A stretch of 64,000 nt of DNA from Marsupella aquatica (taxonomy: Eukaryota; Plantae; Marchantiophyta). Position 1 is the first letter of the stretch. Each line of letters begins with the position of its first letter. The position numbers and the translations under genes were made by a program. Of the stretch, positions 15,417 through 38,112 are shown piece by piece. The stretch spans positions 27,924,307 through 27,988,306 of the forward strand of contig OZ316892.1 in assembly GCA_973895155.1 (NCBI GenBank). The letters are read 5' to 3'. The notes under the pieces are model-generated. The model worked only from the letters and a program-made list of their open reading frames with translations. It searched no databases and was not told the origin of the DNA.

Positions 15417-15633
15417 CTCGAATCATGATCATTGTGTGAGGGTTTACTCTTGTCTTGGGTTAATCTCGAATCATGATCATAGTGTGAAGGTTAACTCTAC
15501 TCTTGGGTCAAATAGTCTTGGCTTAATCTCGAATCATGATCATCCTGTGAAGGTTAACTCTACTCTTGGGTCAAAGAAGGTCTTAACGGGTTAAGCTCGA
15601 ATCATGATCATTGGTTAATTCTACTCTTGGGTC
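15417..15633. repeat. Degenerate ~46-bp minisatellite (TCTCGAATCATGATCAT..GTGAAGGTTAACTCTACTCTTGGGT), left part
   Basis: About four copies; the same unit resumes in the same orientation at 17816-18065. Confidence 0.8.
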
Positions 15634-15634
15634 A

Positions 15635-17814
15635 AAGAAGGACTTAACAGGACCCCTCTCATCTTCTGGATTTAAGAGGACTGCAAGATGTCATTAGGAC
15701 TTAATAGGACCCCCCTCTCATCTTCTGGATTTAAGAGGACTGCAAGATGTCATTAGGACTTAATAGGACCCCCCTCTCATCTTCTGGATTTAAGAGGACT
15801 GCAAGATGTCATTAGGACTTAATAGGACCCATGTGACTGCACACCCTATCTAGGTTCTTATGGAGTGTTTGTCAGATCATGAGTCATTGTCATACAAGAA
15901 CATCAGGTCACCACAGTTGGGACCAGAGTAAAGGTGATTTAGCTGAGTGATTTAACTAAGGCTCTTGGAGAGGCATTTTCCTGGGAAAATATTTTTTATA
16001 ATAAAAGGTGAGACCGCGAAAACCCCACGGCCAGGGGGAAGCAAACAGCCCCATAGATAAATCAGAACAACTCCCTCAGGGAGGCCAGCGGCAAAAGCAA
16101 AGGCCAGAATCACAATAAAGAAAAGGGGGGACTAAATCTAGTGGCCCAAAATATGAGTGACCCATACATCATGTCAACTTCTAGAGCCCTAGAGCCGGTA
16201 AAGCGAGGTATCCCATTCGACCTCTTCCAATAGCTATCACTCCTAGACCAGCAACGCAGCCACAGAGGTGACTCTGCCAGTACTCCTAGCAAACCACTGT
16301 CGTCGTTCTAAAGCTATAAGATCCCTGGCCTTAGCCAGTCTGATGCACCGCCCACCAATGGGGAGGCACCAGCCCGCAGCCCGCAAGTGAGTCTCGGTTT
16401 CCGATAGGACCAGCCCAAAATCAAATACTCGGATCACCTTTTTCTCAAAAATCTGCTCATTTCGTCCCATCCATAGAGCCCACAGCATTTGATAATGCAG
16501 GAAAAGGCAGGCAGATTGGGTGTGTGTTCTGGAATCAGTAGCAACAAGGAGTTCCAGGCTACCCCAACCCTTGCCAAACAGTTCTCTCAAGGAGCTGGAC
16601 TCTTGGAGAGGCATTTTAGGCAAGCATGAACAGCAAGCGGCAGGCCAGGTCAGTTTCAAACAGTACCATGCATGAACAGCAAATGTTGGGGAAAGGAGCA
16701 AGGAAAGGGAGTTTTAGTCAACAATGCACAGAGATGAAAGGATCGAAGCTAAACATGTGGTGATATGTAATGTAGATTGACACAGGTCTTGGAAGACCAT
16801 CGTCTTCAACTAGTTTCTAAAGCTCCACTGAGCTGGAGTCTCAAAAGCGAACTTCCTCTCAACAAAAGCATTTGTAGGTGCCAATGACATCTTAATTTTG
16901 GCTCACTCATTCAGTCTCAAATCAAATATCAGCTAACACTTTTGGGGCATTAGACAAATGTTCATGAATTGAAGATGATCGCACATACGGTTTATTATGT
17001 TGACCTCAAATTTGACCTATTCTGTGAATCGTCCGTTATCGCGGACCAGCGGAGGGAAAGCTACATCGATTTTCTTCTTGATTAATTCTGACCAATGACT
17101 CAAGGCACCACAGAAATACAAAGGCAACACCCTGCTGCAAGTAATTTTTGGCGATTCGCGTTCAACGGCAAAGCTTGATCGCCTGCCGTCGCGCAAGGAC
17201 AGCACTTCCCGGCCCATTAACTCAAAATTTTCCACACTTCTAAGTGGGCAATCTAATATCAATAGAGGTAGGCAATCAGCTTTGGCTGTTCTGGATTTTC
17301 TGAATAGAGAAAGTGCCCTTCAACAGAGAGAGTGCCCTTCAATCCGTAAACAAAAATCACGATTTCATAAGTAGCTGGTATCTTGGAGGTCGCCAACACT
17401 TGAGTCACCCAGCACAATCCAATGATTGAAGTGTAGCGTCCACGATCCAACAATGTCCACGATCCAGCAAAGACCACATAGGTTCATGCATTGTTTTCCT
17501 CCTTCAATAGACTGGAGATATTGATTGTCAAGGTTTCTCATTCAAAACAATAAGCTATTGCCTCTCCCGCATTGAACTTTGGGCTATCCCAGCTATCCCA
17601 GCCCTGTTCAAGACTCCCCTAAACTCTTTGCTAAAATCTTTGCTAAAACATATTATGCCTACCAACTGTGAAACGCGCACTCAACAATCAACTGTGCACT
17701 CCAACAAGTTCCTAGCCACGGTGGGCAGTCACAGGGATCCTATTAAGTGTTGATGCCATCTTGCAGTCCTGTTAAGTCCAGAACATGCCAGAGGGTTCCT
17801 GTTAAGTCCTTCTT
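15635..17814. mobile_element. 2.2-kb segment bounded by imperfect ~95-bp inverted repeats (putative non-autonomous DNA transposon or foldback)
   Basis: Left AAGAAGGACTTAACAGGA..GGACTGCAAGATG..TTAATAGGA..TGTGACTGC (59-bp core triplicated, 15651-15830) is the reverse complement of 17721-17814. No transposase or TSD seen. Confidence 0.5.
15980..16599 (-). mobile_element. 5'-truncated L1-like LINE with 18-bp TSD
   Basis: CTCTTGGAGAGGCATTTT at 15962-15979 and 16600-16617; minus-strand peptide LWALWMGRNEQIF matches the W..W..RN..IF motif near the C-terminus of plant L1 ORF2; AT-rich 3' end. Confidence 0.75.
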
Positions 17815-17815
17815 C

Positions 17816-18065
17816 AGTCTTGGGTTAATCTTGTGTTATTAGAGGGTTAACTCTAGTCTTGGTTTAATCTTGAATCATGATCATCGGGTGAAGGTTAACT
17901 CTAGTCTTGGGTTAATCTTGTGTTATTAGAGGGTTAACTCTAGTCTTGGGTTAATCTCGAGTCATAATCATCATGTGAAGGTTAACTCTACTCTTGGGTT
18001 AATCTTGTGCTATTAGGCTAATTGCTATTAGTGTTAAGGTTAATTCTAGTCTTGGGTTAATTTAG
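17816..18065. repeat. Right part of the same minisatellite as 15417-15633
   Basis: Repeated GGTTAACTCTAGTCTTGGGTTAATCT units. Confidence 0.8.
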
Positions 18066-18207: not shown

Positions 18208-18921
18208 TGTCGTGACATATAGTATCGTAGCCATAGTGTATCGAAAACATACAAGTCACCGGCAAGGCATATGTGCAAGCTGCTAGCAACCAACATGCAT
18301 AGAAAAAGTCCAATCACATTCACAAGTGCCAAGAAAAAGCAAATGAAGTGGTATGTACGTAGTGGAGGTGTAAACCTCTGTATATATAAAAGGCGTAAGA
18401 GAAACAATTGTACTGAAATCGAATCGAAAACCGGCAGGATGCCAAGATCGGTCGGGAGCATCTAACAAATCACTGTGTGAATCCCGTGTACGGAACCGAC
18501 GAGCACTGTCTGAGCTCTGTCAACAACGATTCAAGAAGAACTGAAAACCCACAAAGAAAGACATGCCCTAAGCAAGCAAAGTCCTGGCGTCACACTAACA
18601 AGCACATTTGCTTCAAGAATGGCCCAGACTTGCTACAAGAACATGTCGCTAACTCAGGTAGTACACTAGCCCTAACTACATACCTAGCGGGCAGGCAAGG
18701 GACATGCCGATGTGCATAAGAGGCACTGACCCTCGGCATGACAGCTGTCGTGACATATAGTATTGTAGCCATAGTGTATCGAAAACATACAAGTCACTGG
18801 CAAGGCATATGTGCAAGCTGCTAGCAACCAACATGCATAGAAAAAGTCCAATCACATTCACAAGTGCCAAGAAAAAGCAAATGAAGTGGTATGTACGTAG
18901 TGGAGGTGTAAACCTCTGTAT
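18208..18921 (-). repeat. Element A 3' terminal block b1-GC-a2-b2
   Basis: 18208-18383 matches 18746-18921 (176 bp, 2 differences seen); 18388-18743 matches 37221-37576 (356 bp, about 7 differences). Confidence 0.95.
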
Positions 18922-18928
18922 CCCCCCC
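18922..18928 (-). promoter_or_regulatory. G-tract (polypurine tract) of element A
   Basis: G7 on the sense strand immediately before b1, about 30 bp after the pol stop; element B has the same arrangement. Confidence 0.7.
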
Positions 18929-18960
18929 AGACCACAGCCAAAAGGAGGGCTGAAGAAAAT

Positions 18961-21900
18961 TCAGGTAGCACGTGGAGCACAGGAAGGGCAAAACCATAAC
19001 CCTTCTGGCACCTGGGTAAGTTCAGGCCGAAGGCAGAAAAGATGGTACCCTCCATTGCAATTGTCACACAGCAGCATCTGGTCAGCATCATCAATTCGCA
19101 AACACACTTTGCAAGGGTAGTCCACAGGTGGAATCCAAGTAGAAGTCACAATGGTGGGATCCAGGTTAGGCAGATGACAAGGGGCGCAATTCTTGGCATT
19201 GTCAGCAATTGTGCGCCCATCTGCCCCTTGTAACTCTAGCACTCCAGACGGTCGAATAGCTTTAACCCTGAGAATAGTACGACTAGTAGAGGTGTCCAGG
19301 GTGTTGTTAGCTTGCCGTTGCAAGTACACAAAATCTCCCACTTTAATCTTCCTGACCTTGGGCTGAAAAGTGCCCCCTCGTGTGTGTGCATAACGCAGTG
19401 TGTCCCTGTGCTGTGCAATGGCCAAATTCTCCATGGCCATGGGCATAACCCTCCCGAATAGGGCAGCCCTCTCAGAGATCACATCAGACCAAGTCACAGC
19501 TGAATCCAAGTCTACCACCTGAAGCATGTGAGCAGCAATAGCAGAAGGTGGAACTGGGTGACGACCAAACAACAAGAAGTAGGGAGAAAAGTTAGACAGT
19601 GATGCATGTCTGGACATCCTATACCCCATGGCAATGTAGGGTAAGGCCAGGTCCCAATCCTCCTTGTTTTTGGTGAGGCAAATCTTCCGGAGACCCTTCT
19701 TGCATGTCTGAACCATGCGCTCTGCCAAGCCATCTGCTTGTGGGTGATCTCGAGATGTCCGGCAATGATCAATGAGGGCCTGATCAAGCAGCTCCTGGAA
19801 CTCTCCTCTAAACTCTGAGCCCTGGTCAGTGAGACATTCTGCACAAGCTCCAAAGCGACTGAGAACTTGTTACAAGAATGCCTGGTTGGTGCTACGGGAG
19901 GTCTTATCCGGCAATGCCACAAGTTTTATCCACTTGGAGAAATGCTCTATCATGATCATGATGTAGAGATTACCCTAAGACGTGAGGGGTAATTCTCCAG
20001 CCAAATCACATGACCAGCGATAAAACATGCCCTGAATAGGGAGTGGATGAAGTGTGGGTTGCCGATATGTGAAAGAAGTCCTCACCCTATCACACTGTTC
20101 ACACCTGGCAATAACATCTCGAACCTGGCCATGCATGCCTCTCCAATGATAATGAGGGACCAAGAGGCTGTAAGTCCTCTTAACACCAAAATGACCAAGC
20201 TCAGAATGTACCTTACGGATAAGGCCAACCCTCTCATGAATGGGTGGAACCACCACTTCCCTGTCTGGCAAGCAGCGCACGAGATGATCTCCCTTCCACA
20301 AGTAGCGCTTGGACCTTTGCTGAATTCGGTCTCTCTGGGCAGCAGTAACATGTGTGGGGTACTCCCCATGCTGCAGAAATCTCAGAGTGTCACTGTCCTC
20401 CCATATGTCCACCACAGGTTGGTCAACAACGTAGCATGGCAGCAAAGCAAGATAGGTAGATGCATGAAATGTAGGCAGGATGGAAACCTGGTCAAAATCC
20501 TGCCGTGCATCTGAGGAATCATTAGAGGCAATCAAAGGGCTGCGGGACATAGTGTCAGCATTTTGATGTGTTACACCAGGCCTATGAATTACCTCAAAAT
20601 CATACTCCTGGAGTATGAGCGCCCAACGAGCAAACTTTCCAGTAAGCTTGTCGTTGGTCATCAACCACTTCAAGGGTTGGTGGTCGGTGTAGAGAACAAA
20701 CCTGGTCCCATAGAGGTAGGGCTTGTAATGTATGACAGCCCACACAACAGCAAGGCATTCACCCTCATAAGAAGAATAATGACTCTCTGCCTGATTGTTG
20801 CTCCTGGATGCATAGGCAATGATGTACTCTTTACCTTCCTCATCATGCTGGCCCAGAATGGCACCAATCCCAAGGGCACTCCAATCTATGTGTAACACAA
20901 AGACCTTGCTGAAATCAGGTCTTCTCAGCACCGGGTATTCTGAGAGCTTCTCCTTCAAAGTGGCAAATGCTGCCTCAGCATCTGTACTCCATGTCCAAGT
21001 CACATTCTTTTTCAACAAAGCATACAATGGGTGTGCAATGGTACTGAAATCTTTGATGTAGATCCGATAGTAATTGCACAACCCAATAAAACTCCTGAAA
21101 GTGTGAACATCGATAGGAGTGGGCATTTCCAAGATGGATACCACCTTGGCCCAGTGAGCCATGGTTCCATTTGGAAGAATGCGATGCTCAAGATATACTA
21201 CTGATCTGACAGCAAATTCACACTTCTTGGGGTGTATCTTTAGGTTCACCTTCTTAAGCCTCATGAATAGCTCCTCAAGGTCAAGTAGATGTTGGTCAAA
21301 CCCTTTGCTGTGCACCAACACATCATCAATGTAGCATTTCAGAAACTCAGCACCTTGAAGAACCTGGTCCATGACTCTTTGAAAGAATATGGGCGCATTC
21401 TTCAAGCCAAATGGCATCACCAACCACTCCCATAGTTGGTTACTACCATGGAAAGCTATTTTCTTGCGGTCCTTTGCAAGCAGCAAAATCTGGTTAAAGC
21501 CTTGCCTTAGATCCACAAGAGTGAAGATGTCTGAGTCTCCAATGCTGTCAAATAGCTCCTCTGGCCGTGGCATGGGGTACCTGTCCTGGGGTGTGACCAT
21601 GTTTAGTGGCCTGTAGTCCCCACACATGCGCTTCTCTGTCCACAATCCACTGGAATCCTTCTTTGCTGGCATCACTGTAGCTGCTGCAAAATCTGATGTA
21701 GATGGCTGAATAAGACCAGCTTCATATAACTCTTGGCACCTCTCATCCACCAGCTGCCACTCATGCTTACTCAAACGGTGTCTCCGCCTGAAGATAGGTG
21801 TTTCATCAGCCAACTCAATGGAGAACTGCATAGTCTTGCACTTACCCAAGTCCTTCATAGAGAAAGCAAACATATTCTCATGCTTGAGGAGCAAATTCAG

Positions 21901-24312
21901 CAGCTGGTCCTTCTGTCTTTTACTCAGGTGGTTGCCCATGATGAATGTGTAGTTGGCAACACTAGGAATAGGACCTGATGTACTCGTACTTGAAGAGCCA
22001 AAAGTGCTAGCCTCTCCACTGTCCAAGCTGCTGATAAGGTGATGAGGCCTCTCCAAGGCCTGTTGTACCTGCTGATCTGGGTTGGTCCACACCATGAAAC
22101 TCAGAAATAATATCAGCCACATTACAAGGGACCTCCTCCCCCCAACACTTGGACTGAAGCGGTGAGTGTTGAATAGAGGTAAGTGCACCTGGTCGGGATG
22201 CCATGTAGCAGCACCATGGAGTGGTAGAGCTGGAACTCCAGATGCTGGATGAATGTACATCTGAAAAAGTGACCAGAAGCCAAGTGAGAGCATTAAGATC
22301 CATTACCCTACCAAGTAAAGCATTCCTGGCCAGCCTGGTGATCTGGGTGTGACTTGTAGTACCGGATTGGAAGCCCATAGCCCGTTCTCTCTCCTCAGGA
22401 CTAGGTTCATCCCAAGTACCGGTAGAATGTCGATAAACCAGGCCAGGACCATCACCCTGAAAGGCATGTGCACCTGGAAAGGATACAAATGTAGGCCAAG
22501 CAGCACGGGGTTGTCCAATGGTATTGGTTGGATACCAAGGTGCTGGCTCTTGCCGTGTAACTGGTTGGCAAGAACTGTCAGGATCCAAAATCTGGTCCAC
22601 TGTGAGGTTAGTGTCCCTGGATGTGTGGTGAAGAGCTAACTCCAGCAAGGAAGGTGGTGCAATTCAAGGTTAGTCCAAAAGTTACGAAGACGATGTGCAT
22701 AAGAATCACAGTGCACTGCATCAATGAGAAGGGGTGGTCCCAAGTAGTGCTGGACCACACTGAAATCCTCTTTGACCTGTGGACGCTGGTCAAATTGAGA
22801 TGGAGTATTCTCAATGATATAACCAACAGCAGGATAAAGGGACTGAGCCCAGATGAGAATCTGAACCAATGCTGTGAAAAGGCCAGAACGAGAATCATGC
22901 AGTCCAGCACCGTGACCAGTAGCTGAAAACCCTTGGCATTCCCAACCAACTATGATCAAATCAAGGGAGCCAAGAAGGGTTAAGTGCCGGTGCTGGACAA
23001 GTTGGATATCTGGAGGAAAGAAAGAAAATGCAGACTTCCATGCACTGTGTGGAAACTGCTGGGGAAATCGCTCTGAAAATTCCAGTAGACGGGATTCAGC
23101 CACTTGCCTTGCACCTAGATCAATATCCACATAGATGTACTGCTTCACCACCATGCTAGACTGTAGGAGAGCTTCCAGGCCTGTAAAAATGCCACCAAAA
23201 AGCTCAAGCAATGTAAGGCCATCTGAAGGAGGAGTCCATGTAACTGGTGCGCTCAAGATTGGGGCTATTGGTTGGCCATTGTGCTGCCCAAGATCCTCAA
23301 ATTTGCGCAATGCAGCCACCAAAGGTCCATGGGCTGCTTGGAGCCGTTGTACCACCTCTGGTTGATGATCCACGTTGCTAGAAAGTGCTGCTATACGTGC
23401 AGCAGCATGTGCAGTAGCCACCTCATCATCATCCTCCTCAATCCAATCCTGCAATGGGTGGTTGACATAGGTAGCTGTGTGCACTGCTTTCAACACACAG
23501 TGGTGAGCCATAGGTGTATGGGCACCATGCAAATCAAGTGGAATGTAGCCCAAGTGTGAGCCATCCGTATGCCAATCAACTCTGTAGTATGCATGCTCAT
23601 GCCAGTTGTCAATGGTAAAACCTGGTGGGAACAAAGCCTCCTGGCCAATGAGCACATCATACGTAGTGGCATTGGTAACTAAACATCTGACTGGGAAATG
23701 CAATTCCTGATCTGTACCTCCATTAAAAGTGAGAGTGAGTAAAGTAGAACTCTCACCTAGCACATCCTCCACAGTGCCACTAGCAGTCTGAATGTGCCAC
23801 TTGGATTGCTGTAAATGATCAGTCAACAGTCCCATCTTCTTGGCAAACTGAATGCCCAATATCACTGGTTGAGCACTTGTGTCTAGCATGACCACCTGAG
23901 GAGTGTGACCCTCCAACTTGACCACTGAATTCTTGTTGTCAACAATGGCAATGGTGGTGGAAACTGAAGTCCTGTCACTAGGCACCACTCTCGGCAAATG
24001 ATGAGGTACCTTGTGAAGGGAGTTAGTGTCCATGGTCTTTCCACTCAACAACATAGCTAGGAAAGATGGAGCAGCATGACCAGAATCAAGTGTAGCTCTG
24101 GTCACACAATCAGCAGCAATCGGTACTGGGGCAGCCAAACCAGTGGAAACATGTAAAGGAGAAGAAGAAGGTCCAGTATGTACATGAGATTGGACCTCCA
24201 AAACCGGTGTCACAGGGGCTGATGAAGAATGCAGTGAACCCTCTAGCGCTCCGAGGACAGCTCTAGCATCCAGCTGTAAATCATGGCAACTGAAAAGTGG
24301 AGTTGTAAGAAT
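18961..24312 (-). pseudogene. Element A pol: protease, C5 DNA methyltransferase, RT, RNase H, integrase, PHD (frameshifts and stops)
   Basis: MLDTSA; LELFGGI, GWECQG, IENT, HRLRNFWTNL, ERERAMGF, RNALLGR; RMCGDYR, MPFGLKNAP, YIDD; HSELGH..CEQC, WSCD, AERMV; C4HC3 PHD CKVC..CDNC..H..C..WFCPSC. Confidence 0.92.
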
Positions 24313-24641
24313 TGTCACACCATTCTGAGTAGTGTAGTAGTATATCGTGCTATTAGAGTATGTACGTTTGGTATGAGTGCTATTGGAGCCGATAAGGTTC
24401 TGTCAGGTTTGTGTGAGAGGGTACTTCTCACTTGTGAGGCATTGAAAGGTCATCTTTCAATGTTGAGCCTTGGAGAGAGAGGAGCTTGAGTGTGGCTATG
24501 GTGGCTGTGAGCTCCGCTTGTGTAACGTGGATTCCTTGAGTAGTGCAAGGTGCGTTGGCTTGACATACGTGTGTGATCGGATCGGTGCGGGATCGATGGG
24601 GTATTGTTGACCGGGATCGTTGTACCGATTGTATGGAGATT

Positions 24642-24656
24642 ACATTGAAAGATCAC
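24642..24656 (+). promoter_or_regulatory. Self-priming primer-binding site of element B
   Basis: ACATTGAAAGAT(CAC) directly after a1 is complementary to (GTC)ATCTTTCAATGT at 24449-24463 inside a1 (12 bp perfect, 14/15 overall). No TGG-type tRNA PBS. Confidence 0.7.
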
Positions 24657-25177
24657 ATTCGAAATCTGTTGTACGGACTGTGCGGACAGAAGTTTGATTG
24701 ATTGAGTTGTCGACGGTTCGTGGTAGCTCGGATCGTGTGTTGTTATCGAACAGATCGTTGGTATCTTGACCTGTATCGTTGTTGTCCGATCGGCCTGCTT
24801 CCCGATCGATGTACAGATCTGTGATTGGTGACAGGTTTTGAGTTGGAGGTCGATTGATGATTCGTGGAGGAAAGCGAATGTTGAATAGATGTTGGACAGT
24901 GGAAGTCGATCTGTGAGGCTTCAGATCCGATTGCCGGCTATTGTTGGACGATGTTGGCAAGGCGCAGGTGAAGCGACGGCTCTTTTCCTGAAGGAACGGA
25001 GCTGCCAATGCCCCGTGTGACGGTATCATCGTTTCAGTGAAAGAAACGAGGGTCAAAGGTGTTGAATCAAGCTGCTGCCAATTCTGTGGAAGGGCTGCAT
25101 TTTTCATGAAGGAAATCGACAATTTTCGGGAGCTTTTCATGAAGGAAGTAGTCGTTTTTGGGGTCAGGTGTGAGGCG

Positions 25178-25402
25178 CACGAGGTCACCCATCCTGAAAG
25201 TGCTCGCGCGAGGCAACGCGTGAGGTCACCCATCCCGAAAGTGCTCCCAACCGCGAGCGCGAAGTTATCCATCGCGAGCGCAGGCAGGCGCAAGGTCGAG
25301 GTCACCCATCCCGGGGCTATTCCGGGCCGTGAGCGCGAGGGGAGGCACAAGGTCGAGCGCGAGGAGGTCACCCATCCCGGGGCTATTCCCAGCCGCGAGC
25401 GC
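25178..25402 (+). repeat. Four copies of GAGGTCACCCATCC plus flanks in the element B leader
   Basis: Copies at about 25181, 25222, 25298 and 25364. Confidence 0.8.
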
Positions 25403-25948
25403 TTAACTGACAAGTTCTCATCCCACCTTGTGTACACACAAGCTTTGACAACTTGTTGTTTAGATTCAAGCGCCAGGGGGCTTTATACACTTCCCGGTTT
25501 GTTTAGAGGCCTATTCTAGGCCAAATTAGAGACTATTTTGCGGTTTTTGATACTTCTGAGTCCATCTAGACTCACAGATTGAACCAATTTTGCCTTGGTT
25601 CTCATCTACAACATTGGAGTGCCATTGTGAAGCCTATTATGAAGGCTCTTCCTTGAACCTTATGCACATTGTCATACTGATTTGCATTTGCTTTTGTGTG
25701 GAGAGTTGAATGGTATCCATTCTTGTTTCTGGATCCTCTTCACACATGTTTCCTGTTTATGCGCCATGTTAGTTTCGTGTGGGCGCTTGATTCCATAGGA
25801 GTGATCCGGGTTTGCAACTGGACATTCTAGTGTGCTGTGTATTTCTCTCTTGGTGATGTTGGAGTGATGCCCAACACACCATGGTGAGTGCTTGTGGTGC
25901 TGACAGGGATAGATTGCCCTTAGGGTTAGCACATAGATTAGGTTAGGG

Positions 25949-28900
25949 TTGGTCACCACGGATTCTTCTGGTGCTGTTGGATTACCCGATGGACGACGGA
26001 CCGGTTTCACTTGGAGTGGGGCACAGTTTCGGCCAACGGCATTGGTAGCAGTCAGTAGTGCAGCTTTAGACAGTGATTCTGATGAGGACTCAGTGACCAG
26101 TTCTCCTCATCATCAGGTGGTTGCACCTTTGTTGTGGGATATGGATGAGATGTATGGGGCTACAAAGGGCCCACGACGATACTCTGGTGCAGTTGGCATA
26201 ATTGATCTGGATGACTTCATCCAGGAGTTTGATACATGGTGCGATATGCAGACATTGCGTAACGTCACGTTGTTTACCCCTTTCATGGTATGGAAGGGAT
26301 TATTCCAACATTTGGAGGGGCCACCCATGGATGACTACCATGAGTTTTGGAAGGCTCATTTGGTTGAGATTGAGGCATGGAGGCAGCATTGGTCACCTAA
26401 TTACGTGTCCATCACCTATGGCACTAGTGCGGCTGCCCAACCCATTGCCACAGCTGCTGCTTCTTCTAGCAGCACTAGCCAGAGTGGCACACCATCCACC
26501 AGCAGCACTCCAGCAGCATCCACCACTACTCCTGTCGGTGTGATTGTGACAGGAACTGGAGTTGCGCCAGCATTTAATCCTGTGGTGGAATTCTTTGAGG
26601 TACTGAAGCAGAACTATCAGGGTGTGAGAACTGATAAGTTGAAGGGTCTTCAGGAGTTCCAATGCAAGACTGGAGAGAGCCTACGTGAGGCATACACACG
26701 TATGCACAGATTGATCACTGTCACCAAGGGAGTGATAGAGGCTCAGGCAGTTCAGTTTTGGTATGCAATTCTGGACAGAGAATTGCGACGCAGAGTGAGA
26801 GATGTCACTCTGCTTAGGGATGCAGATCCCACATTAGCAGTTGTTTTCACCCTTTTTGAGCACATTGAGCTCAATATGGTGAATGAGAAGGTGGTGACTT
26901 CTGGATTTGCCAAGGAAGCACCAAAGGCTGCATCTACATCCACACCACAGCCTACTGCACGGAAGAGCCAGAGGGAGAAGCCTACTGCACGAGAGTCTAC
27001 CAGCCAGAGACCTGTGCCCTCTTATGCTGGACAGTAGTCAGGATGTTGGACCTGTGGTGGGGATCATGCACAGAGATATTGTGCACGGGATCATAGAGGA
27101 TCAGGGGGAGCATCAGCGCCTGATCAGCGACAGTGTGATCACTGTGGAGCTCCTGGACACACCAAGGATAGGTGTTTCTCACTCCACCCTGAGTTACGGA
27201 GAGGAGGATCCCGTACACATGATCAGGGAAGAGGAGGAGGAGGTAGAGGTGGTGGACGTGGTCGTGGCATGCCACATGCAAGGAGATAGGGAGGTGACGT
27301 TGCCCCTGCTGTAACCATAGATCCAAAGGATGCTAAGATTGCTCAATTGGAGCAACAACTAGCTGCCATGGCTAGTTCCCAGGTGAGACCTAATTTTGGT
27401 AATGGGGCATCTACATCCTATGGACCTTCCACATCCCATGGTCCTTCCACATTTTATGGAGCTGATGGAGACCTTGCCACTATGGGATTCATGTGTGGCA
27501 CTGCACATATTGATGCATCAGCAGCTTTGACACGTGGGGCAGCCAAAGCTCTTGAGCCCCGAGGAGCAGTAGTGGAGTTAGATCCACAGAGGGGGGATGC
27601 ACATCGGCAGACAAAGCTTCCTCAGTCTTTTACATTGTCAGAGACAGTTCAGACTACCTTTATGAACCCGGTTTGGACAAACCCTGATATGGGTAAGTTG
27701 GCAGAATCAGGTAGTGATGCAGCAGGGATGACAAGTACCTTGCTGGGGGCGGCTACTGCCATAGTACGCACCCCATTATTTTCAGCGACGGACATGCTGA
27801 ACTTGGGAGTTGGTCCTACAGAAGTGTTCAGATTGGCAACTACACTCTTTGAGGACACCCCAGTGGTTGTTTCCCATGCAGAAGCAACTTGCAGTGTTGA
27901 TGCAGTGAAGACCATGCCACCTACTGCTACTAGTGAGACATGGCATGCAGCAGCAGCGAGGTTGGTGGATTTACCAGCACACCCTGCATTTGAGAGGACT
28001 AGGTTTAAACCTAGTGTTGTGTCATTGGATAATCGGAGTGGTATCTTCCGATTAGTTGGGCCTTCTGGAGCAGTATACCAGCCAAAGAGAGTGTTACTGG
28101 ATACTGGTGCTCAGCCCTTGATGTTGGGGAAGTCTGCCATACGTGGATTGGGATTGCGTCTAGAGGATTTGGAGGATTGTCCCTTTCCCATTCAGACTTC
28201 ATTGGGGGGACCTACACCTACACAGCATATCACCAGGAGACCACTTGATTTGAGGATTCAGGAAGGTCATACCACAGATAGCTCACAGATACAGGCGCGA
28301 GCTATTCTGACTAAGGCAGAGTCATATGATGTGTTGGTGGGATGTACAGTGCTCTACCCCATGGGATTTATTCTTGATTTTTGGGAGGAATCAGTGTCAT
28401 ATAGACCTGATTGGCAGTCAGGAGATGCTCGATTGAGCAAATTGCCAGTGAGATTTAGTGGACCTGTGGGAGGCCCTAAATCCACACCATTGTCTTTGGC
28501 AGCATTCAGTGGTGTAATTGCTGGACCTGATGATTTGATTGAGGGTAATGCGCATGTAGCCGATGTTCCACCATTGGAGGAGTCTCATGAGGAGCACATC
28601 ATGCGAGGATTACCTGTTGGCAGTGTTGTGCCACCAGTGTGGGGCACTGCACAGGCCTTGCCACAGGCAGCAGCACGATTGGTACATGATGCATGGCGTC
28701 ATGCTTTTACACCACAGTTAGGAGCAGAGCAGTCTCTTGCAGATGGACCTGTGACTCTTTCACCATTGGATACCACTCCTATTGCTTGGCAGTATCCACC
28801 GGAGGGTATTTGTTTGTTGGATCTTTTTGGTGGGATTAGCACTGGATTGGCTGCTGTTCTTTAGGCATGAATTCCTGTGCGTTGTTATTTGTATGTGAAG

Positions 28901-31900
28901 ACAGATGAGACAACACGGAGGGTCTTATTGTGACATGTGGCTATGTTGGTGGATAGATATCCACAGTTGCTGCCAGTGGATGCTGTTCGTGGTTATCAGC
29001 ATGCACTACCTGCTGATATTTTATTGTTGGGGGCGGATCATCTACATCGTGTTGGCCCCATTGATTTGGTGATTGCTGGTTGGCCATGTCAAGGCCAATC
29101 TAGAGTTGGCATTGGGCATGGACTTCATGATCCACGCTCTGCATTGTTTTGGGAGATGTTACGGGTGTTGCGTCATCTCCAGCTACATCAGACACAGTCT
29201 CCAGCATACATTTTGGAGAATGTGCCATTGTTAGGTGATGATCGTAGTCGGATTGTTGCCAGTGTTCACCAGGTGAGGTCTTGGATTGGACCTGCTGTGT
29301 TATTGGATGCTGCACGTGTGGGTTCTCGTGCACATCGTCCACGCTTATGGTGGACTAATTTGATTCCATGTGAGGTGCTGAAGCGCGCATTTGACAGCAT
29401 TCCATGCTCACCAGCCTTAGTGGTGGATGATATTTTGGATCCAGGGCGTCGTGCACAGGGTGTGACCCAACCTGATAGACCTCCATTGGCAATGGTCAAT
29501 GCAGTTGGGTGCCCACGTTGTGCATTACCCACTCTTGTAAGCCACTCTACTTCATATGCATTCAGAGCAGGTGGCCCTGGACTTGTATGGGACACAGCTC
29601 TCCAGCAGTTAGTGGAGCCTACTGCTTGATGAGAGAGAGCGTGCTATGGGATTTTTGACTGGCACCACTGCAGTTGCCTCTATGTCAGAGTGTTTGCGGC
29701 GCCAGGTTCTTGGTCAAGCAATGGATTTGAATTGTTTGACTTGGATTATCAGCTTGGGAGTAGCTGAACAGTTGCGGATGCGCTCTGCCGGAATTACTGA
29801 TTTCCCTTGGTGAGCTTGCGGTCCACTGAGACAGTATTGACCACAGCTGGGGGCAAGCAGACAGTCCATGGACCTATGACAGGATTGGCGGTTGCACAGA
29901 TTGTTGAGCAGGAAGGGACTGCTCAATCTACTGCTAAATAGCAATCATCGGCTATCTCTTCTACCTTACAAAGAGATATTAGGGATTTGGTGGAGAGTTG
30001 GGAACCACAGCTTGGCCCTAAGTTAACAGGGGAGGAGAGACGTCGCATGCATTGATTCCTGAAGAGTTATTGGAATTGTTTTGCATTCAGCATGAAGGAT
30101 TTGGGGACATTGAAGGGCCCTCGTATTCAGATTGAATTGGCTAGTGATGCGCCAATCTTTCGTAGACCATACCGTTATAGTGACATGGAGAGAGCTCTGA
30201 TTCAAAGCAGAACTCAAGATTTGTTGGAGGCTGGATTGGTGGAGATTTCATATGGGGAGTATGCATCTACCACAGTGATGCCAGCCAAGAAGGATGTGCA
30301 TGGCAATTACACAGATAGGCGCATGTGTGGTGATTACAGACCTATTAATCGCCAGACAAAATCTGATCGATATGCCATGCCCACACTTGAGGAGATCTTT
30401 GATGCTATGGGACATGCAAAGGTTTTCAGTTCATTGGATCTGAGGGCAGGATACCATCAGCTTCCAATTAGGCATGCTGACAGGTCCAAGACAGCATTCT
30501 GGGGGATTGATTCTTATGGCAAAGATCATTTGTATCAATGGTTATTCTTACCATTTGGGTTGAAGAATGCACCAGTTGAGTTCCAGAGAGTCATGGATCG
30601 AATCCTTGCAGGTTTGGATTTTGTCAGATGTTATATTGATGATATTTTGGTCTATTCTTCTACTGTGGAAGAACATCAGCAGCACTTGCAGACTGTGTTG
30701 GAGAGATTGAGAGCACATGGGTTGAAGCTCCATCCTAGCAAGTGTAAGTTCTTCCAAGACCAGATTGAGTATTTGGGCCACACCATATACCCAGGGGGAT
30801 TGGGTGTACAGCAGACTAAAGTGGAGGCCATTACACAGATTCCTTGTCCTACTGATGTGAGTAGAGTTCGTGCATTCTTGGGATTGGTGAGCTACTACAG
30901 GAGGTATGTTAAAGGATTTAGCTAGCTTGCTAAACCTTTGACCATACTCACTAAGTTGGATCAGGAATGGATTTGGGGTGATGACCAGGAGCATGCCTTT
31001 CAGGAGTTGAAGCAAAGGTTGGCATCATCCCTTATTTTGAGAAGACCCATTTCAGGCAGACCATTTCAGCTACACACTGATTGGAGTGGAGTAGGACTTG
31101 GAGTAGTGCTGACTCAGAAGGATGATGAGGGGAATGAGTTTGTTGTGGCTTATGCCAGTAGATCAAACAATTCAGCAGAGGCTAAGTATAGCTCTTATGA
31201 GGGAGAGTGTTTGGCAGCAGTGTGGGCTATTGCACACTTTCGTTGCTACTTGTTTGGTAACCCCTTCACCTTGATCACTGATCATCACCCTCTTAAGTGG
31301 TTAATGGAGTCTAACAAGCTTACAGGGAAGCTTGCACGATGGGCATTGTTGTTACAGGAGTATGATTTCCAGGTGGTGCATAGGCCTGGAAAAGTGAACT
31401 TGGATGCAGATGGATTAAGCCGCAATCCATGTACCAGTCAGCAGGATGAGACTGGAGCCAGATGGCATGATGAGTCAGATAAGGAGATGGTGTCAGGATG
31501 GCATGCATCTGCCTTTCTTTGTTGGGTGCCAGCATACAGTGGATCTGTGGACTCTACCTCATTGGATGGAGTGGATGATGAGTCTTCAGATGTGGATGTT
31601 GGTGAGGTAACTTTTGGACAACAAGATATTCACAATGATGTGAGAGTGTTGGAATATCTGCGCAATAGTTCTATTGTTGGCAGTGTTGATGCCAAGGAAC
31701 GTGACAGGGTTCTACAGAGAGCCAAGAGGTTTCGATGGGAGGGAAACCATCTTTTGAGAGTACTGCATGATGGTAGGATGTTGGTGGTACCAAAACCATC
31801 ACAACGAGTACATTTGGTGCGACATGCGCACGAGGAGTTGGGTCACTTTGGTGTGAAACGCACTTACAGCTTGCTGCAGACACAGTATTGGTGGCGTGGT

Positions 31901-33064
31901 ATGCACACTCATGTCCAGCAGTTGATAGCTAAGTGTGTGGTATGTGATAGAGTGAGAGCATCATTTAATGCTCCCACTCCCCAGTTGCACCCGTTACCGA
32001 TCATGGGTTTGGGATATCGTTGGAGTTTGGATTTTGCTGGTCCATTACCTCTTACCCAACGCCATAATTGGTATGTTTTGGTCATGGTGGAACACTTCTC
32101 CAAGTGGATTGAGCTAGTGGCGTTGCCAGATAAAGCCAGTGGATGAGTTGCTGCTACATTTTTGGATCGTGTACTAAGTCATTTTGGAGCACCAGAGGTG
32201 TTGACTGATCAGGGAACTGAGTTCCGTGGAGAGTTTGAGAGTTTGTGTGAACAAGCTCTGATTGATCATTGTACTACCTCTCGTGATCATCTTGAGGCAG
32301 ATGGATTAGCTGAGAGAGTTGTGCAAACTGTGAAGAGAGGATTGCGTAAGTATGGCTTGCAGGTTGGTCATCTGGGAGATTGGGATCTCCAGCTACCTTG
32401 GTTAGCTATGGGCTACCGTTTCAGTCGGCAAGCATCACTTGCATCCTTCTCACCCTACTTTTTGCTCTATGGTAGAGAGCCAGATTTGCCAGCAGCTATT
32501 CATCGTCATGCTGCACCAGTTGTGAACTTGGATGATCCTGATGTTTGGGTCAAGGTGTGTTCAGAGAGAGCACGGGTATTTCAGAGACTGATGCCCATGG
32601 CTTTTGACAACCTTGCCATTGCCCAACATCGTGATACTTTGAGGTATGCCACTATTCGTGGAGGAGGTTACCGTGCAAGCATTCAACGATTTCATCCTGG
32701 TGATTATGTTTATTTGCAGCAGACAGCACCCACGACACTTGATGTGACCGCAAGCCGGACAATCTTACGTGTGCGTGAAGTGTTGCCTTCTGGTGTCCTG
32801 ATGTTGGAGGGACGCGATGGTATGGTTTGGAAGGATCATGTGTGCAACTGTGCACCATGTCACCTTCCCAACATTGATGGTACAGTAGATCCAAGCTTGG
32901 CACATGTTCGTGCTGGCTTGAAATGTATGTTGTGTGGATCTGCTCAGGGAGCAGCTACTATGTTGATTTGTGATAAGTGTTCTAGAGGATGGCACATGTC
33001 ATGTTTGACACCACCATTGCAGGTGATTCCTAGTGGATCATGGTTGTGTCCTCAGTGTCGGTGA
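25949..33064 (+). pseudogene. Element B gag-pol: Gag with two zinc knuckles, protease, C5 DNA methyltransferase (about 28802-29760), RT, RNase H, integrase, PHD; several premature stops
   Basis: CWTCGGDHAQRYC and CDHCGAPGHTKDRC; LLDTGA; LDLFGGI, GWPCQG, ILENV, HRPRLWWTNL, RAMGF, RRQVLGQAM; YIDD; HEELGH..CVVC, WSLD, LTDQG, AERVV; PHD CMLC..CDKC..H..C..WLCPQC. Confidence 0.93.
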
Positions 33065-33228
33065 AGTCGACTAGTTATCATTTGTGTTCTCTTGGCAGAT
33101 ATGGATTGCAGGTAGGTGATCGATGGGGCTCACTTGCACCCGGCCTCCTGATCTTCACACCTAAAAAGGTGTATATCAACCTTGTAGAACTCATGGCTAG
33201 CTAGAGTTAGGGGACCTTACTCCCAGCT

Positions 33229-33235
33229 AGGGGGG
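33229..33235 (+). promoter_or_regulatory. G-tract (polypurine tract) of element B
   Basis: AGGGGGG ends 2 nt before the start of b1 (33238). Confidence 0.7.
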
Positions 33236-33237
33236 CG

Positions 33238-33844
33238 ATTGTGGGTTTTGGACATGTGTGGACATGAGTTCCACTTGTATTCCATTCTCTTGTATTTGTG
33301 ATGTGGCAGTGTGACTATGTCTGGATGTATGTGACAAGCGATGTATGTTGTGTAGCGATATGTATGCGCACGACAGCTGTCACACCATTCTGAGTAGTGT
33401 AGTAGTATATCATGCTATTAGAGTATGAACGTTTGGTATGAGTGCTATTGGAGCCGATAAGGTTCTGTCAGGTTTGTGTGAGAGGGTACTTCTCACTTGT
33501 GAGGCATTGAAAGGTCATCTTTCAATGTTGAGCCTTGGAGAGAGAGGAGCTTGAGTGTGGCTATGGTGGCTGTGAGCTCCGCTTGTGTAACGTGGATTCC
33601 TTGAGTAGTGCAAGGTGCGTTGGCTTGACATACGTGTGTGATTGGATCGGTGCGGGATCGATGGGGTATTGTTGACCGGGATCGTTGTGCCGATCTTATG
33701 GAGATTATTGTGGGTTTTGGACATGTGTGGACATGAGTTCCACTTGTATTCTATTCTCTTGTATTTGTGATGTGGCAGTGTGACTATGTCTGGATGTATG
33801 TGACAAGCGATGTATGTTGTGTAGCGATATGTATGCGCACGACA
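33238..33844 (+). repeat. Element B 3' terminal block b1-GC-a2-b2
   Basis: 33238-33375 matches 33707-33844 (138 bp, 1 difference seen); 33378-33706 matches 24313-24641 (about 6 differences). Confidence 0.95.
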
Positions 33845-35637
33845 GAATCCTTTGTGCCATACCGGAGGTGACATGCTCAAGCAGCTCAGGAGAAACAACT
33901 CCCTGTGAAATGTCAGCAGCACCTGGTGGTGGAATGGATGTAGCTGCAGCTCCCTCCCCCCTCGCCAACAAGGTGCGCTCTTCAGCAAGTGTGAGTGGCT
34001 GAAAAGATTGGGGCAAGACAGCCCGAGCTCCCCTGGCTCTAGTCATAGGACCGGCAGCAAGACCATCAGCCTGTACAATGTGGCGTGTGGGAGCAATACG
34101 AGAGGCAACACTGGCTTGCTGGTAAGCAAAATAGGAAGGGCAAAATGAATCTGAAAATTCTGCTGTAAGGCCAGGCTGTGGAGCAGAGGACAGCACACAC
34201 TCACCCATATGAGCATCAAATGGCAAGCCATAGAAACAGCGGGGTAGAGGTGTTGAACGGTCAATGGTGCCTGGGCCAGGGATGGGTTGCACGTGACCAG
34301 CCGGTTGAGAAGGACCAGCAGAGGCAGTTGACTTGCCTTTGATGTTGGCAAGTTGGGCACGTAGGGACTCAACCTCATGAGTCAGAGACTGGAGTTGAGT
34401 TGCCTGTGCATTGTGAGCCTTCTTCTGAGCTGGTGGCTTCTGTTGCTGCTTGGGCAATTTGTTGGCACTGGTTGCTTTGCCACTAGAAGGAGGAGCAACT
34501 GATGCAGTAGGAGCCCTCCTAGCTGGTGGGGGAGTGGAAACAGGAGCAGGATGAGTGGCCTGTTGTCGTAGCTGCTTCCTCTCTGGGAATTTGGCAAAAC
34601 AAACTGCCTCCAAGTGGCCCACTTTCCTGCAAAAATCACAAGACAGGTCCTCAGCAACAATATCACATTCATTAGCCTTGTGATTATGATTGCCATAGTA
34701 GTTGCAAGATGGCAGCATGAAAGCAACATGTGCTGGTTTGGTCTTGGAAGCATACTGTGGCACACGGGAAGGGGTGGCCATTGTAGGAGCAGCAGCCTGG
34801 TACCTGGATCGCGGTGGATGCGCAATAATGGCCTCATAATGTCCATGGGCCAACTCAAGTTTCTCAGCAGTGTCGTAGACATTGAGCAATGTGTAGCTGT
34901 CTCCAAACTCTGAGAATACTTGCTGCAACACTTGTGAATGGAGAGCTGGTGTGCCCTCCAATGCGCGAAGATAGCGATGAGCAGCTTCCAGGTCAGTGAT
35001 GCTCTGGGTGTCCTCCTTCAGCTTAAGAAGCCGGCGATACATCATCTTCAAGGTTTCATCGCGCTGCCTCACAAAGGTCGCCAACTGCATGATTTTGTCA
35101 GCACTCTTGATTGGGAATTCCAATTCAAGAACCTGGAAAAACTCAGCCACTAGATCAGCAAAGGCAGGGGAATCAATGGTGGGAGAAATGCCTGATGTAG
35201 CCTGTGCCAAGATAGTGGGAGTAACTGGCGCAGTGGTAGGAACTGGAGTAGGAGGAGAAGTGGCAGGAGCAGCAGCATGGGCTGCAATGGCATTATGTAA
35301 TGCCAATTGTGAGGCAGCCGCAATTGCACTGGCATAGGCAGGGTTAGGCAATTGTGTGACAGCAAGCAGCCGTTGAGAGTGCTGCTCATACACATCCAAA
35401 GCAGAAGGGGTAAATGGCAATGAAGGGATAGCAGGCTGTGGAGTAGTGGTGAAGCGACCGCCAAATTGAGCAGAAGGATTGCGTGGTGTGGGTGCTGCTG
35501 CTGTTTGCGGACGTCGTCGAAATTGCCGAGACTCCAATGAAATTGGCACCAGGCACCAATGGGCGTGGATCACTCCGTAAATGGTACCTAGGTGTCGGTG
35601 GCGATGTGCTGCTACCTCCTGGCTCGTCGGTTGACAT
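33845..35637 (-). pseudogene. Element A gag region, split from pol by the insertion of B
   Basis: Zinc knuckles CNYYGNHNHKANEC and CDFCRKVGHLEAVC. Removing B and one TSD rejoins ..MAQRIL+TTPLFS in frame (B has AIVRTPLFS). Probable ATG at 35637 with an early frameshift. Confidence 0.85.
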
Positions 35638-37205
35638 GCTGCATGCTCACCTGGGTGCCAATGGGAAAGAAACTGACAAGAAAAAGAAATGGCAGCCCCA
35701 AGGCTAGGAAGTAAACGGTGTGAGCAAAAATGTGTCGAATGTGTAAACACACAGAAAAACCGTCGGCAAAGAAAAGACCCTTAAAAACTCCAATTGTACT
35801 GGTGTTGTGCTTGCTGGATTGATTGTCTGATGAATATGCCGGGCCCTCAGCTTTATGCAGATGACATGTGGCGGTAGCAAAGAAATCCAGAAAAATGGGC
35901 CCTTAAAAACATAAACCTGGGCCCCCCTTAAGTGTATACCTCGGCCTTTTCAGATGTATAAACATGGGGCCCGGTTAAGTGTATACATCGGGCCCCGATG
36001 TGGACCCGGGAACTGGCAGCAAGGGTGTGCGTCGGCAGGAAATGAAAACTGGGCCAAGTGGGGATACGGTATCGGGGCACGGTGCCCTATGCAGGTCGTT
36101 GATGGCAAGGCGAGAAAGAAATGGAAGAAACGACTCAAAAGGGAGGCAAGGGGAAAGAAAAATGGGCCTCAATTGCTCGAGCCCTGCATAGGGCTTCGTG
36201 CCATACGCCCTCCTTATGAGCTCCCAAACTCCCCTCTTTATAAATGCTCTGTAATTTGGGCCTCGTGCCTGGCAGGACTCCCGAGAAGGGAGTCGTATGT
36301 ACTCCCCTTCCCCTTCTTTAATGCAAATAGGGCCTTGTGCCCTCTTCTAGTCTTCTGGCACACTCGCTCCCCCTCCTCTCTTGCTTTAATGCTTCCTAGG
36401 GCCTCGTGCCCTCTCCTGGCACTCGCTCCCCCTCTCCTTATAAGCTCCCAAAGGGAAGGGAGCTACGAACTCCCCCCTCCTCTCCTTGAATGCCTGAATG
36501 TACTCGCCCCCCTCTTAATGCTGCATAGGGCTTTGGGCCCTCTCCTTGCGCTCCTGCCTTGGCCTGGGGCAAAAATCTACTCCCGAGTGAGGGAGTTCGA
36601 ATGGGACTTCCCTCCCCTGCTTTAATGCTGCCGAGGATGCTGGCAATGGCAGGAAACAAATGAAGGAATGGGCGAGGGAGGAAGAAAAATGCCGAAGGGA
36701 GGGCGCGCGGCCCTATGCGCGACCCAAGGGCAATGATGAGCCCCGCTTGTGTATACACAAGCAAGACCGGGAGGCACCTCGCAACGGTAGCTACGAGGGG
36801 AGGCAAAATGAAACAACGGCCGGTGAGGGAAAAGAAAGAACGGGACCCCAAAGGGTCGTGAAAATGTAAAGCAAAGGGAAGGTGGTCGCGCTGCGACCGG
36901 AAAACACCGAAAGTTGCCCGAAAAAGGTCGTGGTAGTCAGCAGCCGGCAGCCGGCAGCCATAGTCGGAAGCAGCAAAGGGTCCTCGGATGCAACCGGAAA
37001 GAAAAAATCGGGCTCCAACAGGAGCGTTATGTGTATACTTATGTTAAGTATACACTTAACACCATATTGAACCCATAATTTCAACCCGTACCTCCATTGT
37101 TGCTCAAAGAAATTGCACCGGCTTCGACGGAAATTTTCTGGACCGACATAGCAGCTGAGAAGCACAACGTCGTTGATCTTCTTCCCTTCACTGCTAACCC
37201 GGCGG

Positions 37206-37220
37206 CAGTTCTTCTTGAAT
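37206..37220 (-). promoter_or_regulatory. Self-priming primer-binding site of element A
   Basis: CAGTTCTTCTTGAAT (37206-37220) is the exact 15-bp reverse complement of ATTCAAGAAGAACTG (37362-37376) inside a1, and it abuts the inner edge of a1. Confidence 0.75.
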
Positions 37221-37576
37221 AAAAGGCGTAAGAGAAACAATTGTACTGAAATCGAATCGAAAACCGGCAGGATGCCAAGATCGGCCGGGAGCATCTAACG
37301 AATCACTATGTGAATCCCGTGTACGGAACCGACGAGCACTGTCTGAGCTCTGTCAACAACGATTCAAGAAGAACTGAAAACCCACAAAGAAAGACATGCC
37401 CTAAGCAAGCAAAGTCCTGGCGTCACACTAACAAGCACATTTGCTTCAAGAACGGCCCAGACTTGCTACAAGAACATGTTGCTAACTCAGGTAGTACACT
37501 AGCCCTAACTACATACCTAGCGGGCAGGCGAGGGACATGCCGATGTGCATAAGAGGCACTGTCCCTCGGCATGACA
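37221..37576 (-). repeat. Element A 5' terminal repeat a1
   Basis: Matches 18388-18743; sense strand begins TGTCATG. Confidence 0.95.
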
Positions 37577-37645: not shown

Positions 37646-38112
37646 TGTCACACCATTCTGAGTAGTGTAGTAGTATATCGTGCTATTAGAGTATGTACGT
37701 TTGGTATGAGTGCTATTGGAGCCGATAAGGTTCTGTCAGGTTTGTGTGAGAGGGTACTTCTCACTTGTGAGGCATTGAAAGGTCATCTTTCAATGTTGAG
37801 CCTTGGAGAGAGAGGAGCTTGAGTGTGGCTATGGTGGCTGTGAGCTTCGCTTGTGTAACGTGGATTCCTTGAGTAGTGCAAGGTGCGTTGGCTTGACATA
37901 CGTGTGTGATCGGATCGGTGCGGGATCGATGGGGTATTGTTGACCGGGATCGTTGTGCCAATTGTATTGAGATTATTGTGGGTTTTGGACATGTGTGGAC
38001 ATGAGTTCCACTTGTATTCCATTCTCTTGTGTTTGTGATGTGGCAGTGTGACTATGTTTGGATGTATGTGACAAGCGATGTATGTTGTGTAGCGATATGT
38101 ATGCGCACGACA
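37646..38112 (+). mobile_element. Solo a-b unit (467 bp) of the element B family
   Basis: Same length as and nearly identical to 33378-33844; TG..CA ends; flanks GTCC and ACCC do not form a perfect TSD. Confidence 0.92.

Follow-up and report, generated by a model that had tools for sequence, protein, structure and literature searches.

A methyltransferase domain in a Gypsy retrotransposon

The DNA analyzed here, hereafter the window, is a stretch of 64,000 nucleotides from the liverwort Marsupella aquatica (GenBank assembly GCA_973895155.1, contig OZ316892.1, positions 27,924,307 to 27,988,306, forward strand). It contains a Ty3/Gypsy retrotransposon, element B, that carries a cytosine methyltransferase (DNMT) domain between its protease and its reverse transcriptase (RT) and is itself inserted in a second, divergent DNMT-bearing element, element A. 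The coding features of element B are as follows, in window coordinates.

24313 to 33844, + strand: element B, Ty3/Gypsy retrotransposon with split direct repeats and ends TGTCA...ACGACA
24309 to 24312 and 33845 to 33848: 4-bp target duplication GAAT
26141 to 29941, + strand: open reading frame 1 (ORF1), decayed, encoding Gag, protease, DNMT and a linker
27134: Gag CCHC knuckle
28094: protease motif LLDTGA, upstream of the DNMT
28790 to 29765, + strand: DNMT3-type C5 cytosine methyltransferase domain by sequence, motifs I to X unpermuted, between protease and RT
28817, 29078, 29216 and 29333: motifs I (LDLFGGI), IV (GWPCQG), VI (ENV) and VIII (HRPRLWWTNL), in the frame of 26141
29640 and 29697: motifs IX (RAMGF) and X (RRQVLGQAM), in a shifted frame
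29939 to 29947, + strand: natural ORF1 stop TAG followed by CAA TCA, in frame with RT, a CARYYA readthrough-type context
29942 to 33064, + strand: RT, RNase H, DDE integrase and C-terminal PHD finger
30632 and 32924: RT motif YIDD and PHD finger
27035, 27287, 28862, 28868 and 28931: premature stops in ORF1
near 29627 and near 29803: frame shifts in ORF1
30053, 30923 and 32144: premature stops in the RT–integrase part

The Gypsy domain order (protease, RT, RNase H, integrase) is present, and the integrase matches the rve family with E=2.5e-12. The copy is dead. The first-pass annotation had noted its premature stops; these number eight in total, and the two frame shifts come in addition to what it noted.

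The same annotation had proposed a DNMT3-like enzyme from six C5-methyltransferase motifs in canonical order, numbered in the usual way for this enzyme class. All six are present and span 28817–29723, with motifs I–VIII sharing a frame with Gag and protease. The PF00145 search that it suggested gives a match for 28790–29629 (stops entered as X) with E=1.6e-10 and 41.4 bits against a cut-off of 22, and the best match among solved structures is DNMT3A (E=1e-9). A profile built from 11 intact relatives ranks DNMT3A (95 bits) and DNMT3B (88) ahead of DRM (54–64), HhaI (42) and DNMT2 (31). DNMT1, MET1 and CMT are absent from the 57 profile matches. A structure model of P0001, the closest intact relative (pLDDT 88), matches DNMT3A with E=6.6e-18 and a TM score of 0.71, indicating a DNMT3-like fold across the whole domain. 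The catalytic Cys, the ENV Glu, the Arg pair of motif VIII and the Gly of motif I are invariant in 11 diverse relatives, and the motif IV Cys is found in all 254 proteins matched by a motif pattern, preceded by Pro in 130, Glu in 112, Ser in 11 and Cys in 1. Judged by sequence and predicted fold, the domain at 28790–29765 is a real, DNMT3-type methyltransferase.

A DRM identity was rejected because DRM motifs are circularly permuted and those of element B are linear. The profile and fold rankings favor a derivation from DNMT3. No host DNMT3, DRM, MET1 or CMT occurs among the 62 domain matches, the 119 profile matches or the 150 clusters listed. The ESM Atlas returned only generic C5-methyltransferase clusters. 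Viral contigs gave no match to P0001; a wider alignment gave 17 weak phage-type methyltransferase matches, which were not used.

The DNMT closes ORF1 ahead of a conserved stop

The first-pass annotation placed the DNMT inside the Pol polyprotein. It does lie between protease and RT, but between it and RT stands a conserved stop (29939): the DNMT ends ORF1 (Gag–protease–DNMT) and stands upstream of that stop, outside the Pol frame proper. P0001 aligns to 27761–29938 and ends exactly at the TAG. Of 52 proteins with a protease and a complete DNMT, 47 are without RT, RNase H and integrase, and 43 of the 47 terminate 58–169 residues past the DNMT domain; Marchantia polymorpha has several annotated Gag–protease–DNMT frames of 1278–1281 residues. 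Junctions in loci from JGI were located with a marker 44 codons before RT, giving 42 rows, from which two stray motif matches and three rearranged junctions were excluded. A stop is present in 35 of the 37 intact junctions (TAG in 23, TAA in 12), and the next codon is CAA in all 37 (CAACCC in 36, CAACTC in 1). Two loci with linkers of other lengths read TAG CAA CCA (L003) and TAG TAG CCA (L047). Because the DNMT is at the end of ORF1, before the stop, the enzyme would be made at the level of Gag.

CARYYA is a known context for stop readthrough (PMC3441728). The likeness to such systems lies in a stop followed by CAR-YYA; in element B, however, the stop follows protease and DNMT and is not at a gag/pol boundary. 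In the window as a whole, CARYYA follows 8 of 2759 stop triplets, and Gln codons in the pol of element B are CAA in 16 cases and CAG in 36. No row for variation at 29939–29947 was found among the 40 of 120 rows listed for four sequencing runs. We consider it likely, from this context, that the RT–integrase part is produced by readthrough of the conserved stop.

Several observations count against this view. Five of the 52 proteins continue into RT, namely one from Klebsormidium and four gene models of bryophytes in which the region of the stop is skipped, and some relatives hold DNMT and RT in a single frame, so the stop is not universal; two JGI loci have TAC in its place. The commonest moss-like context, CAA CCC ATG, is one letter off CARYYA, and its ATG permits re-initiation. 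The JGI loci are also largely redundant copies of one family that were selected by DNMT motifs, and the rows are not independent.

RT–integrase might instead come from transcripts spliced over the stop, as happens in Ogre elements, or from ribosomes that re-initiate at an ATG close by. The main moss-like family has an ATG two codons past the stop, and the bryophyte gene models join DNMT to RT across the stop region. However, there is a single in-frame stop with RT in frame with the DNMT, CAR-YY follows the stop in element B, L003 and the main family, no ATG is found there in B or L003, and the gene models put their DNMT–RT joins at differing sites. We regard this route as somewhat unlikely.

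Relatives, phylogeny and selection

The domain occurs in many other members of the family, including relatives in Marchantia, Calypogeia, moss-like copies and the JGI loci. Sixty-two longer proteins match it, many of which come from Marchantia polymorpha, Calypogeia fissa, two Sphagnum species, Closterium and Mesostigma. A profile search with 119 matches adds Klebsormidium KFL_009030040, Chromochloris, Cymbomonas and Haematococcus, along with two distant dinoflagellate proteins; the Chromochloris and Haematococcus entries are single-domain matches only. At E<=1e-30 there are 560 clusters (50% identity). No fern, lycophyte, hornwort or seed-plant name was found in this word-limited search, in which most matches lack a species name. 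Of 77 JGI loci examined, 73 are clear family members, many of them redundant, and L005 matches a Sphagnum fallax model without a difference over 141 residues. The Marchantia members P0184, P0185, P0186 and P0189 carry Mp_Vg gene names, placing them on the V sex chromosome.

Three layouts can be distinguished. Protease, DNMT and RT share one frame in Klebsormidium and a few others; protease and DNMT are followed by a stop in element B, Marchantia, Calypogeia, the moss-like copies and a metagenomic group; and the DNMT lies between RNase H and a PHD-bearing integrase in Cymbomonas and many others that make up a large sister group (for example P0033, P0035 and P0315), with 40 proteins of this layout in one domain scan and 33 more in another. 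It would seem that the DNMT changed its place in the polyprotein a single time in the green lineage.

Quick trees were built from 61 DNMT rows and 45 RT–RNase H rows, hand-chosen for completeness and spread. Element B groups with the Marchantia, Calypogeia and moss-like copies with an SH-aLRT support of 100. All elements with the DNMT before RT, including KFL_009030040 and element A, group together in both trees (DNMT 91, RT 95), which upholds the link to Klebsormidium elements drawn in the first-pass annotation.

That annotation had also called for a comparison of nonsynonymous (dN) and synonymous (dS) divergence. For the main part of the DNMT, compared by the Nei–Gojobori method with 6 of the 77 JGI loci, dN is 0.26–0.31 and dS is 1.5–2.2; the latter is near saturation, so the dN/dS ratios are rough. 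By comparison, dN is 0.37–0.42 for the protease, 0.63–0.76 for the linker preceding the DNMT and 0.13–0.19 for RT. On these divergence values, the DNMT is under purifying selection between subfamilies.

Contigs aligning to 28700–30200 number 4414, 1892, 874 and 180 in the four sequencing runs. Most contig depth differs from copy B at its premature stops (126831 of 127766 at 28862 in run X1, for example), which indicates that the family is abundant and that the lesions are mostly private to copy B, although depth does not equal copy number. No strong joint skipping the DNMT domain was found in the four runs.

Repeats, priming and integration

The non-coding features of element B, the parts of element A and a solo unit nearby are the following.

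24313 to 24642, + strand: repeat A1, 330 nt, with 6 differences from A2
24452 to 24463, + strand: candidate self-primer within repeat A, 12 nt that can pair with the primer-site position, with a presumed transcript 5' end
24642 to 24653, + strand: primer-binding-site position directly after A1, a perfect 12-nt complement of 24452 to 24463
33229 to 33238, + strand: polypurine-tract-like run adjoining repeat B1, with a putative role as such
33239 to 33844, + strand: 3' repeat block, made up of B1 (33239 to 33375), GC (33376 to 33377), A2 (33378 to 33707) and B2 (33708 to 33844)
18208 to 37576, − strand: element A, host of the element B insertion, divergent DNMT-bearing family, target duplication TCCT
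37219 to 37576, 18746 to 18921, 18386 to 18743 and 18208 to 18383, − strand: element A repeats A1, B1, A2 and B2, with GC between B1 and A2
22274 to 23241, − strand: element A DNMT domain, motif IV GWECQG, PF00145 E=1.2e-4, frame shift near 22665
37646 to 38112, + strand: solo A-B unit of family B, 97.7% identical to A2-B2; flanks GTCC and ACCC, a mismatch as a duplication

Elements A and B have the same design, A...B-GC-A-B, with ends TGTCA and ACGACA and 4-bp target duplications. The element A DNMT is 40% and 51% identical to two parts of the element B domain, and two frames are open across its DNMT–RT linker. Between the two members of the repeat pairs there are 7 differences over 469 sites in element B and 9 over 534 in element A; with so few differences, both insertions are fairly young.

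In element B the B1–A2 junction forms the palindrome GACA-GC-TGTC. Element A and the loci L005, L031 and L054 have it too, while L025, L039 and L069 carry decayed versions. At L025:18078–18730 there is a second, different element end that also reads B-spacer-A-B and whose junction palindrome has decayed. In elements A and B, the A2–B2 junction consists of precisely the end of A and the start of B.

In Tf1-type self-priming, the primer site is complementary to a stretch of the upstream long terminal repeat (LTR), and element B resembles Tf1 in this respect. The complement measures 12 nt in B, 15 nt in A, 17 nt in L054 and 10 nt in L005, and its letters differ in three families, a case of covariation. 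When the 5' region is folded, the primer-site pairing is part of the best structure, with an overall z of only −1.4. Taken with the position of the primer site, the repeat layout indicates that the functional LTR is B-GC-A. The simplest reading is that a linear two-LTR cDNA is circularized and that the integrase then opens it by a cut, staggered by 2 nt, in the upstream palindrome, which would resemble a processed retroviral end. A templated mechanism like that of PAT/Ngaro elements may operate instead.

Copy B bears marks of methylation. Its 22 near-private transitions fall in CG (6), CHG (8) and CHH (8) contexts, with 70, 154 and 504 such sites remaining, and the CpG ratio is depleted at 0.32–0.44 versus 0.78 in the UPF2 gene of the window. 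Together these show host-type methylation of the copy, not assignable to the element's own enzyme. The 5' untranslated region contains four CG-rich 41-nt repeats (25181–25404), the rest of the element being CG-poor.

Comparison with known elements

The closest known system is KnitGypsy-Dnmt3 of Klebsormidium nitens, which has DIRS-like repeats and a Ka/Ks below 0.2 (PMC5890265). Element B has in common with it the Gypsy domain set, an unpermuted, intronless DNMT3-like domain, the DIRS-like repeats and purifying selection. KFL_009030040, presumably a copy of KnitGypsy-Dnmt3, has the order protease–DNMT–RT–RNase H–integrase as in element B, with which it groups in both trees. Element B differs in its land-plant host and in the DNMT ending ORF1 before a conserved stop, whereas the KnitGypsy-Dnmt3 DNMT shares an open reading frame with RT and RNase H according to its authors (peer-review file of PMC5890265). 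Since the DNMT of element B lies behind a conserved stop and not in one open frame with RT, we regard the element as a lineage variant and not the same family. The available text of PMC5890265 makes no mention of the junction palindrome, self-priming site or PHD integrase for KnitGypsy-Dnmt3, and three of its supplements do not name Marchantia or Sphagnum.

Other systems share fewer features. SymbioDIRS-Dnmt3 of Symbiodinium is a retrotransposon-borne DNMT3 that methylates CG de novo in yeast (PMC5890265), but it belongs to a tyrosine-recombinase element and represents an independent capture; the dinoflagellate proteins score 46–63 bits with the B-family profile. The moss enzyme PpDNMT3b, which methylates CG and CHH sites de novo (Yaari et al. 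2019, PMC6453930), has an unpermuted DNMT3 catalytic domain like that of element B, but is a cellular gene product and not part of a polyprotein. Chlorophyte Gypsy elements, such as that of Cymbomonas, have a DNMT of the same clade and a PHD integrase, but place the DNMT between RNase H and integrase. The DNMT of EpiLTR elements is reported to be DNMT4-related and distinct from the streptophyte Gypsy-DNMT3 (bioRxiv 10.64898/2026.05.21.726589).

The A1...B1-A2-B2 layout is also that of PAT/Ngaro DIRS elements (peer-review file of PMC5890265), but these are unlike element B, which has a DDE integrase and a protease in place of a tyrosine recombinase, a 4-bp target duplication, a putative polypurine tract and a primer site. 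A PAT/Ngaro identity was rejected because the rve integrase is present and no recombinase family was found in the element B frames scanned. Troyka elements, defined by CG...CG termini, 3-bp duplications and animal hosts (PMC12440569), were likewise rejected as the source of the repeat layout, given the TG...CA ends and 4-bp duplications seen here.

The hosts of transposon-borne DNMTs are given only as 'streptophytes' in the accessible parts of PMC12344493 and bioRxiv 10.64898/2026.05.21.726589, and none is reported in those of 10.1101/363937, PMC11982613 and PMC6453930. We found no land-plant case in the literature, our coverage of which falls short of most subscription papers and Repbase. The kind of element is known from one alga; element B is a new land-plant variant, set apart by a DNMT placed at the end of Gag–protease, ahead of a stop that is probably leaky, and by an attachment site that can be defined within the element.

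Possible roles of the enzyme

We propose that element B represents a bryophyte Gag–protease–DNMT3 Gypsy family in which the RT part is probably made by readthrough, the enzyme would enter the particle in amounts like those of the capsid, and its likely substrate is the DNA newly made by the element, a reading to which we assign a probability of about 0.6. Leaky-stop readthrough would make the RT–RNase H–integrase–PHD portion, and the protease would release the DNMT inside the particle. Self-primed reverse transcription would then yield linear DNA carrying two complete B-GC-A LTRs. Its ends would be joined head to tail, and the DDE integrase would open the resulting circle within the upstream LTR, at the palindrome GACA-GC-TGTC, yielding A...B-GC-A-B. 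The DNMT would methylate the cDNA before integration and the new copy would arrive pre-marked, which might serve as camouflage or as self-limiting silencing, the host maintaining CG, CHG and CHH methylation. The position of the DNMT, its stoichiometry and its conserved catalytic residues fit best with methylation of the element's own cDNA, either within the particle or immediately outside it, as has been proposed for SymbioDIRS-Dnmt3 (PMC5890265). Methyltransferase activity, packaging and the cDNA substrate are all predictions from sequence.

A number of points weigh on the other side. The KnitGypsy-Dnmt3 DNMT gave no methylation in yeast, a result that its authors call inconclusive and in which human DNMT3B was likewise inactive (PMC5890265). 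The trees are midpoint-rooted, carry SH-aLRT values only and were built without host DNMT3 or DNMT-less Gypsy elements. Besides the roughness of the dN/dS ratios noted above, close moss-like copies have dN/dS of 0.5–0.9 for the DNMT and ∼0.3–0.6 for RT, which fits decay after insertion. Finally, we found no basis in the evidence for a cut at the upstream junction specifically.

The enzyme could instead act at or after integration, together with the PHD-bearing integrase, methylating the insertion site, other copies or competitors in the nucleus. The PHD finger suggests chromatin targeting, and in many algal relatives (the 40 proteins with the RT–RNase H–DNMT–integrase–PHD layout) the DNMT lies beside the integrase. 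In the bryophyte subfamily, however, the DNMT is on ORF1, apart from the integrase, and would far exceed it in amount, which makes this role unlikely.

A bolder scheme goes further: a Gypsy lineage that arose long ago in green plants and is still abundant in both liverworts and mosses would load a DNMT3 at capsid stoichiometry before a leaky stop, prime itself, and form a two-LTR circle cut at a palindrome where methylation made by the enzyme decides which junction is opened. We regard the scheme as quite doubtful when taken whole.

The idea that the attachment junction ACGACA-GC-TGTCA is the target, its methylation marking or protecting one junction and so setting the integrase cut or blocking self-integration, is improbable in its own right. 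This junction and its CG and CAG/CTG sites recur in families with otherwise dissimilar repeats; the four copies with a visible 5' end all begin with A alone; and moss host DNMT3b prefers ACG sites (PMC6453930). Yet integrase recognition alone accounts for the conserved ends, and the decayed junctions (GT, AC and AT spacers; CG to TG) fit host methylation. The junction does hold a conserved CG together with CHG sites, on which the enzyme could conceivably act.

About equally improbable is that the domain, in place of methylating DNA, binds nucleic acid or has a structural role in the particle, or that it methylates RNA. The inactivity of the Klebsormidium domain in yeast (PMC5890265), the suitability of Gag-level amounts for a structural role and the replacement of PC by EC or SC in motif IV of 112 and 11 of the 254 proteins are in keeping with such a role, but the invariant catalytic residues and the DNMT3-like fold throughout are not. 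That the domain is a passively captured or nested piece of a host DNMT3 without a role, as its five breaks in copy B might suggest, is hardly credible given its equal position in liverwort, moss and Klebsormidium elements, the purifying selection, the 560 clusters and the contigs that mostly differ from copy B at its stops.

Host genes and neighboring features

The land-plant origin supposed in the first-pass annotation is borne out by UPF2, a single unbroken frame of ∼1220 codons (51179–54967, − strand). Its identity is 91% with UPF2 of the liverwort Calypogeia fissa and 75% with that of Riccia, and does not exceed 69% for the remaining 118 matches listed, which points to a leafy liverwort. 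This intronless UPF2 may be a retroposed replacement. The other host sequences are a TPR piece (698–1162, + strand), exons of a TauD-family dioxygenase (3737–5925, + strand) and of a heavy-metal P-type ATPase (7068–11719, − strand), an unbroken frame of 676 codons for a P-class PPR protein (40715–42745, − strand) and a piece of an alpha-galactosidase C-terminal domain (57840–58508, − strand; E=1.1e-5).

Immediately outside element A lies a region of degenerate tandem repeats (15400–18060) that also has a 59-nt triple repeat and, at 15653–15867 and 17697–17810, imperfect inverted arms; it may be a non-autonomous DNA element. Degenerate tandem arrays also lie at 46254–47462 and 55381–55824, with units of ∼75–90 nt and 54–56 nt.

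Implications

The role of retrotransposon-borne DNMTs has been unsettled since 2018 (PMC5890265), as the known hosts do not lend themselves readily to experiments and no activity of the Klebsormidium enzyme was seen in yeast. Full-length frames in Marchantia polymorpha, a genetic model, make activity, readthrough and cDNA methylation directly testable. In some bryophyte genomes most C5-methyltransferase matches are transposon-borne, which affects inventories of DNMTs, and derepressed elements could add their enzymes to the sources of de novo methylation. The split-repeat design with an internal attachment site and a DDE integrase points to an integration route unlike that of textbook LTR elements.

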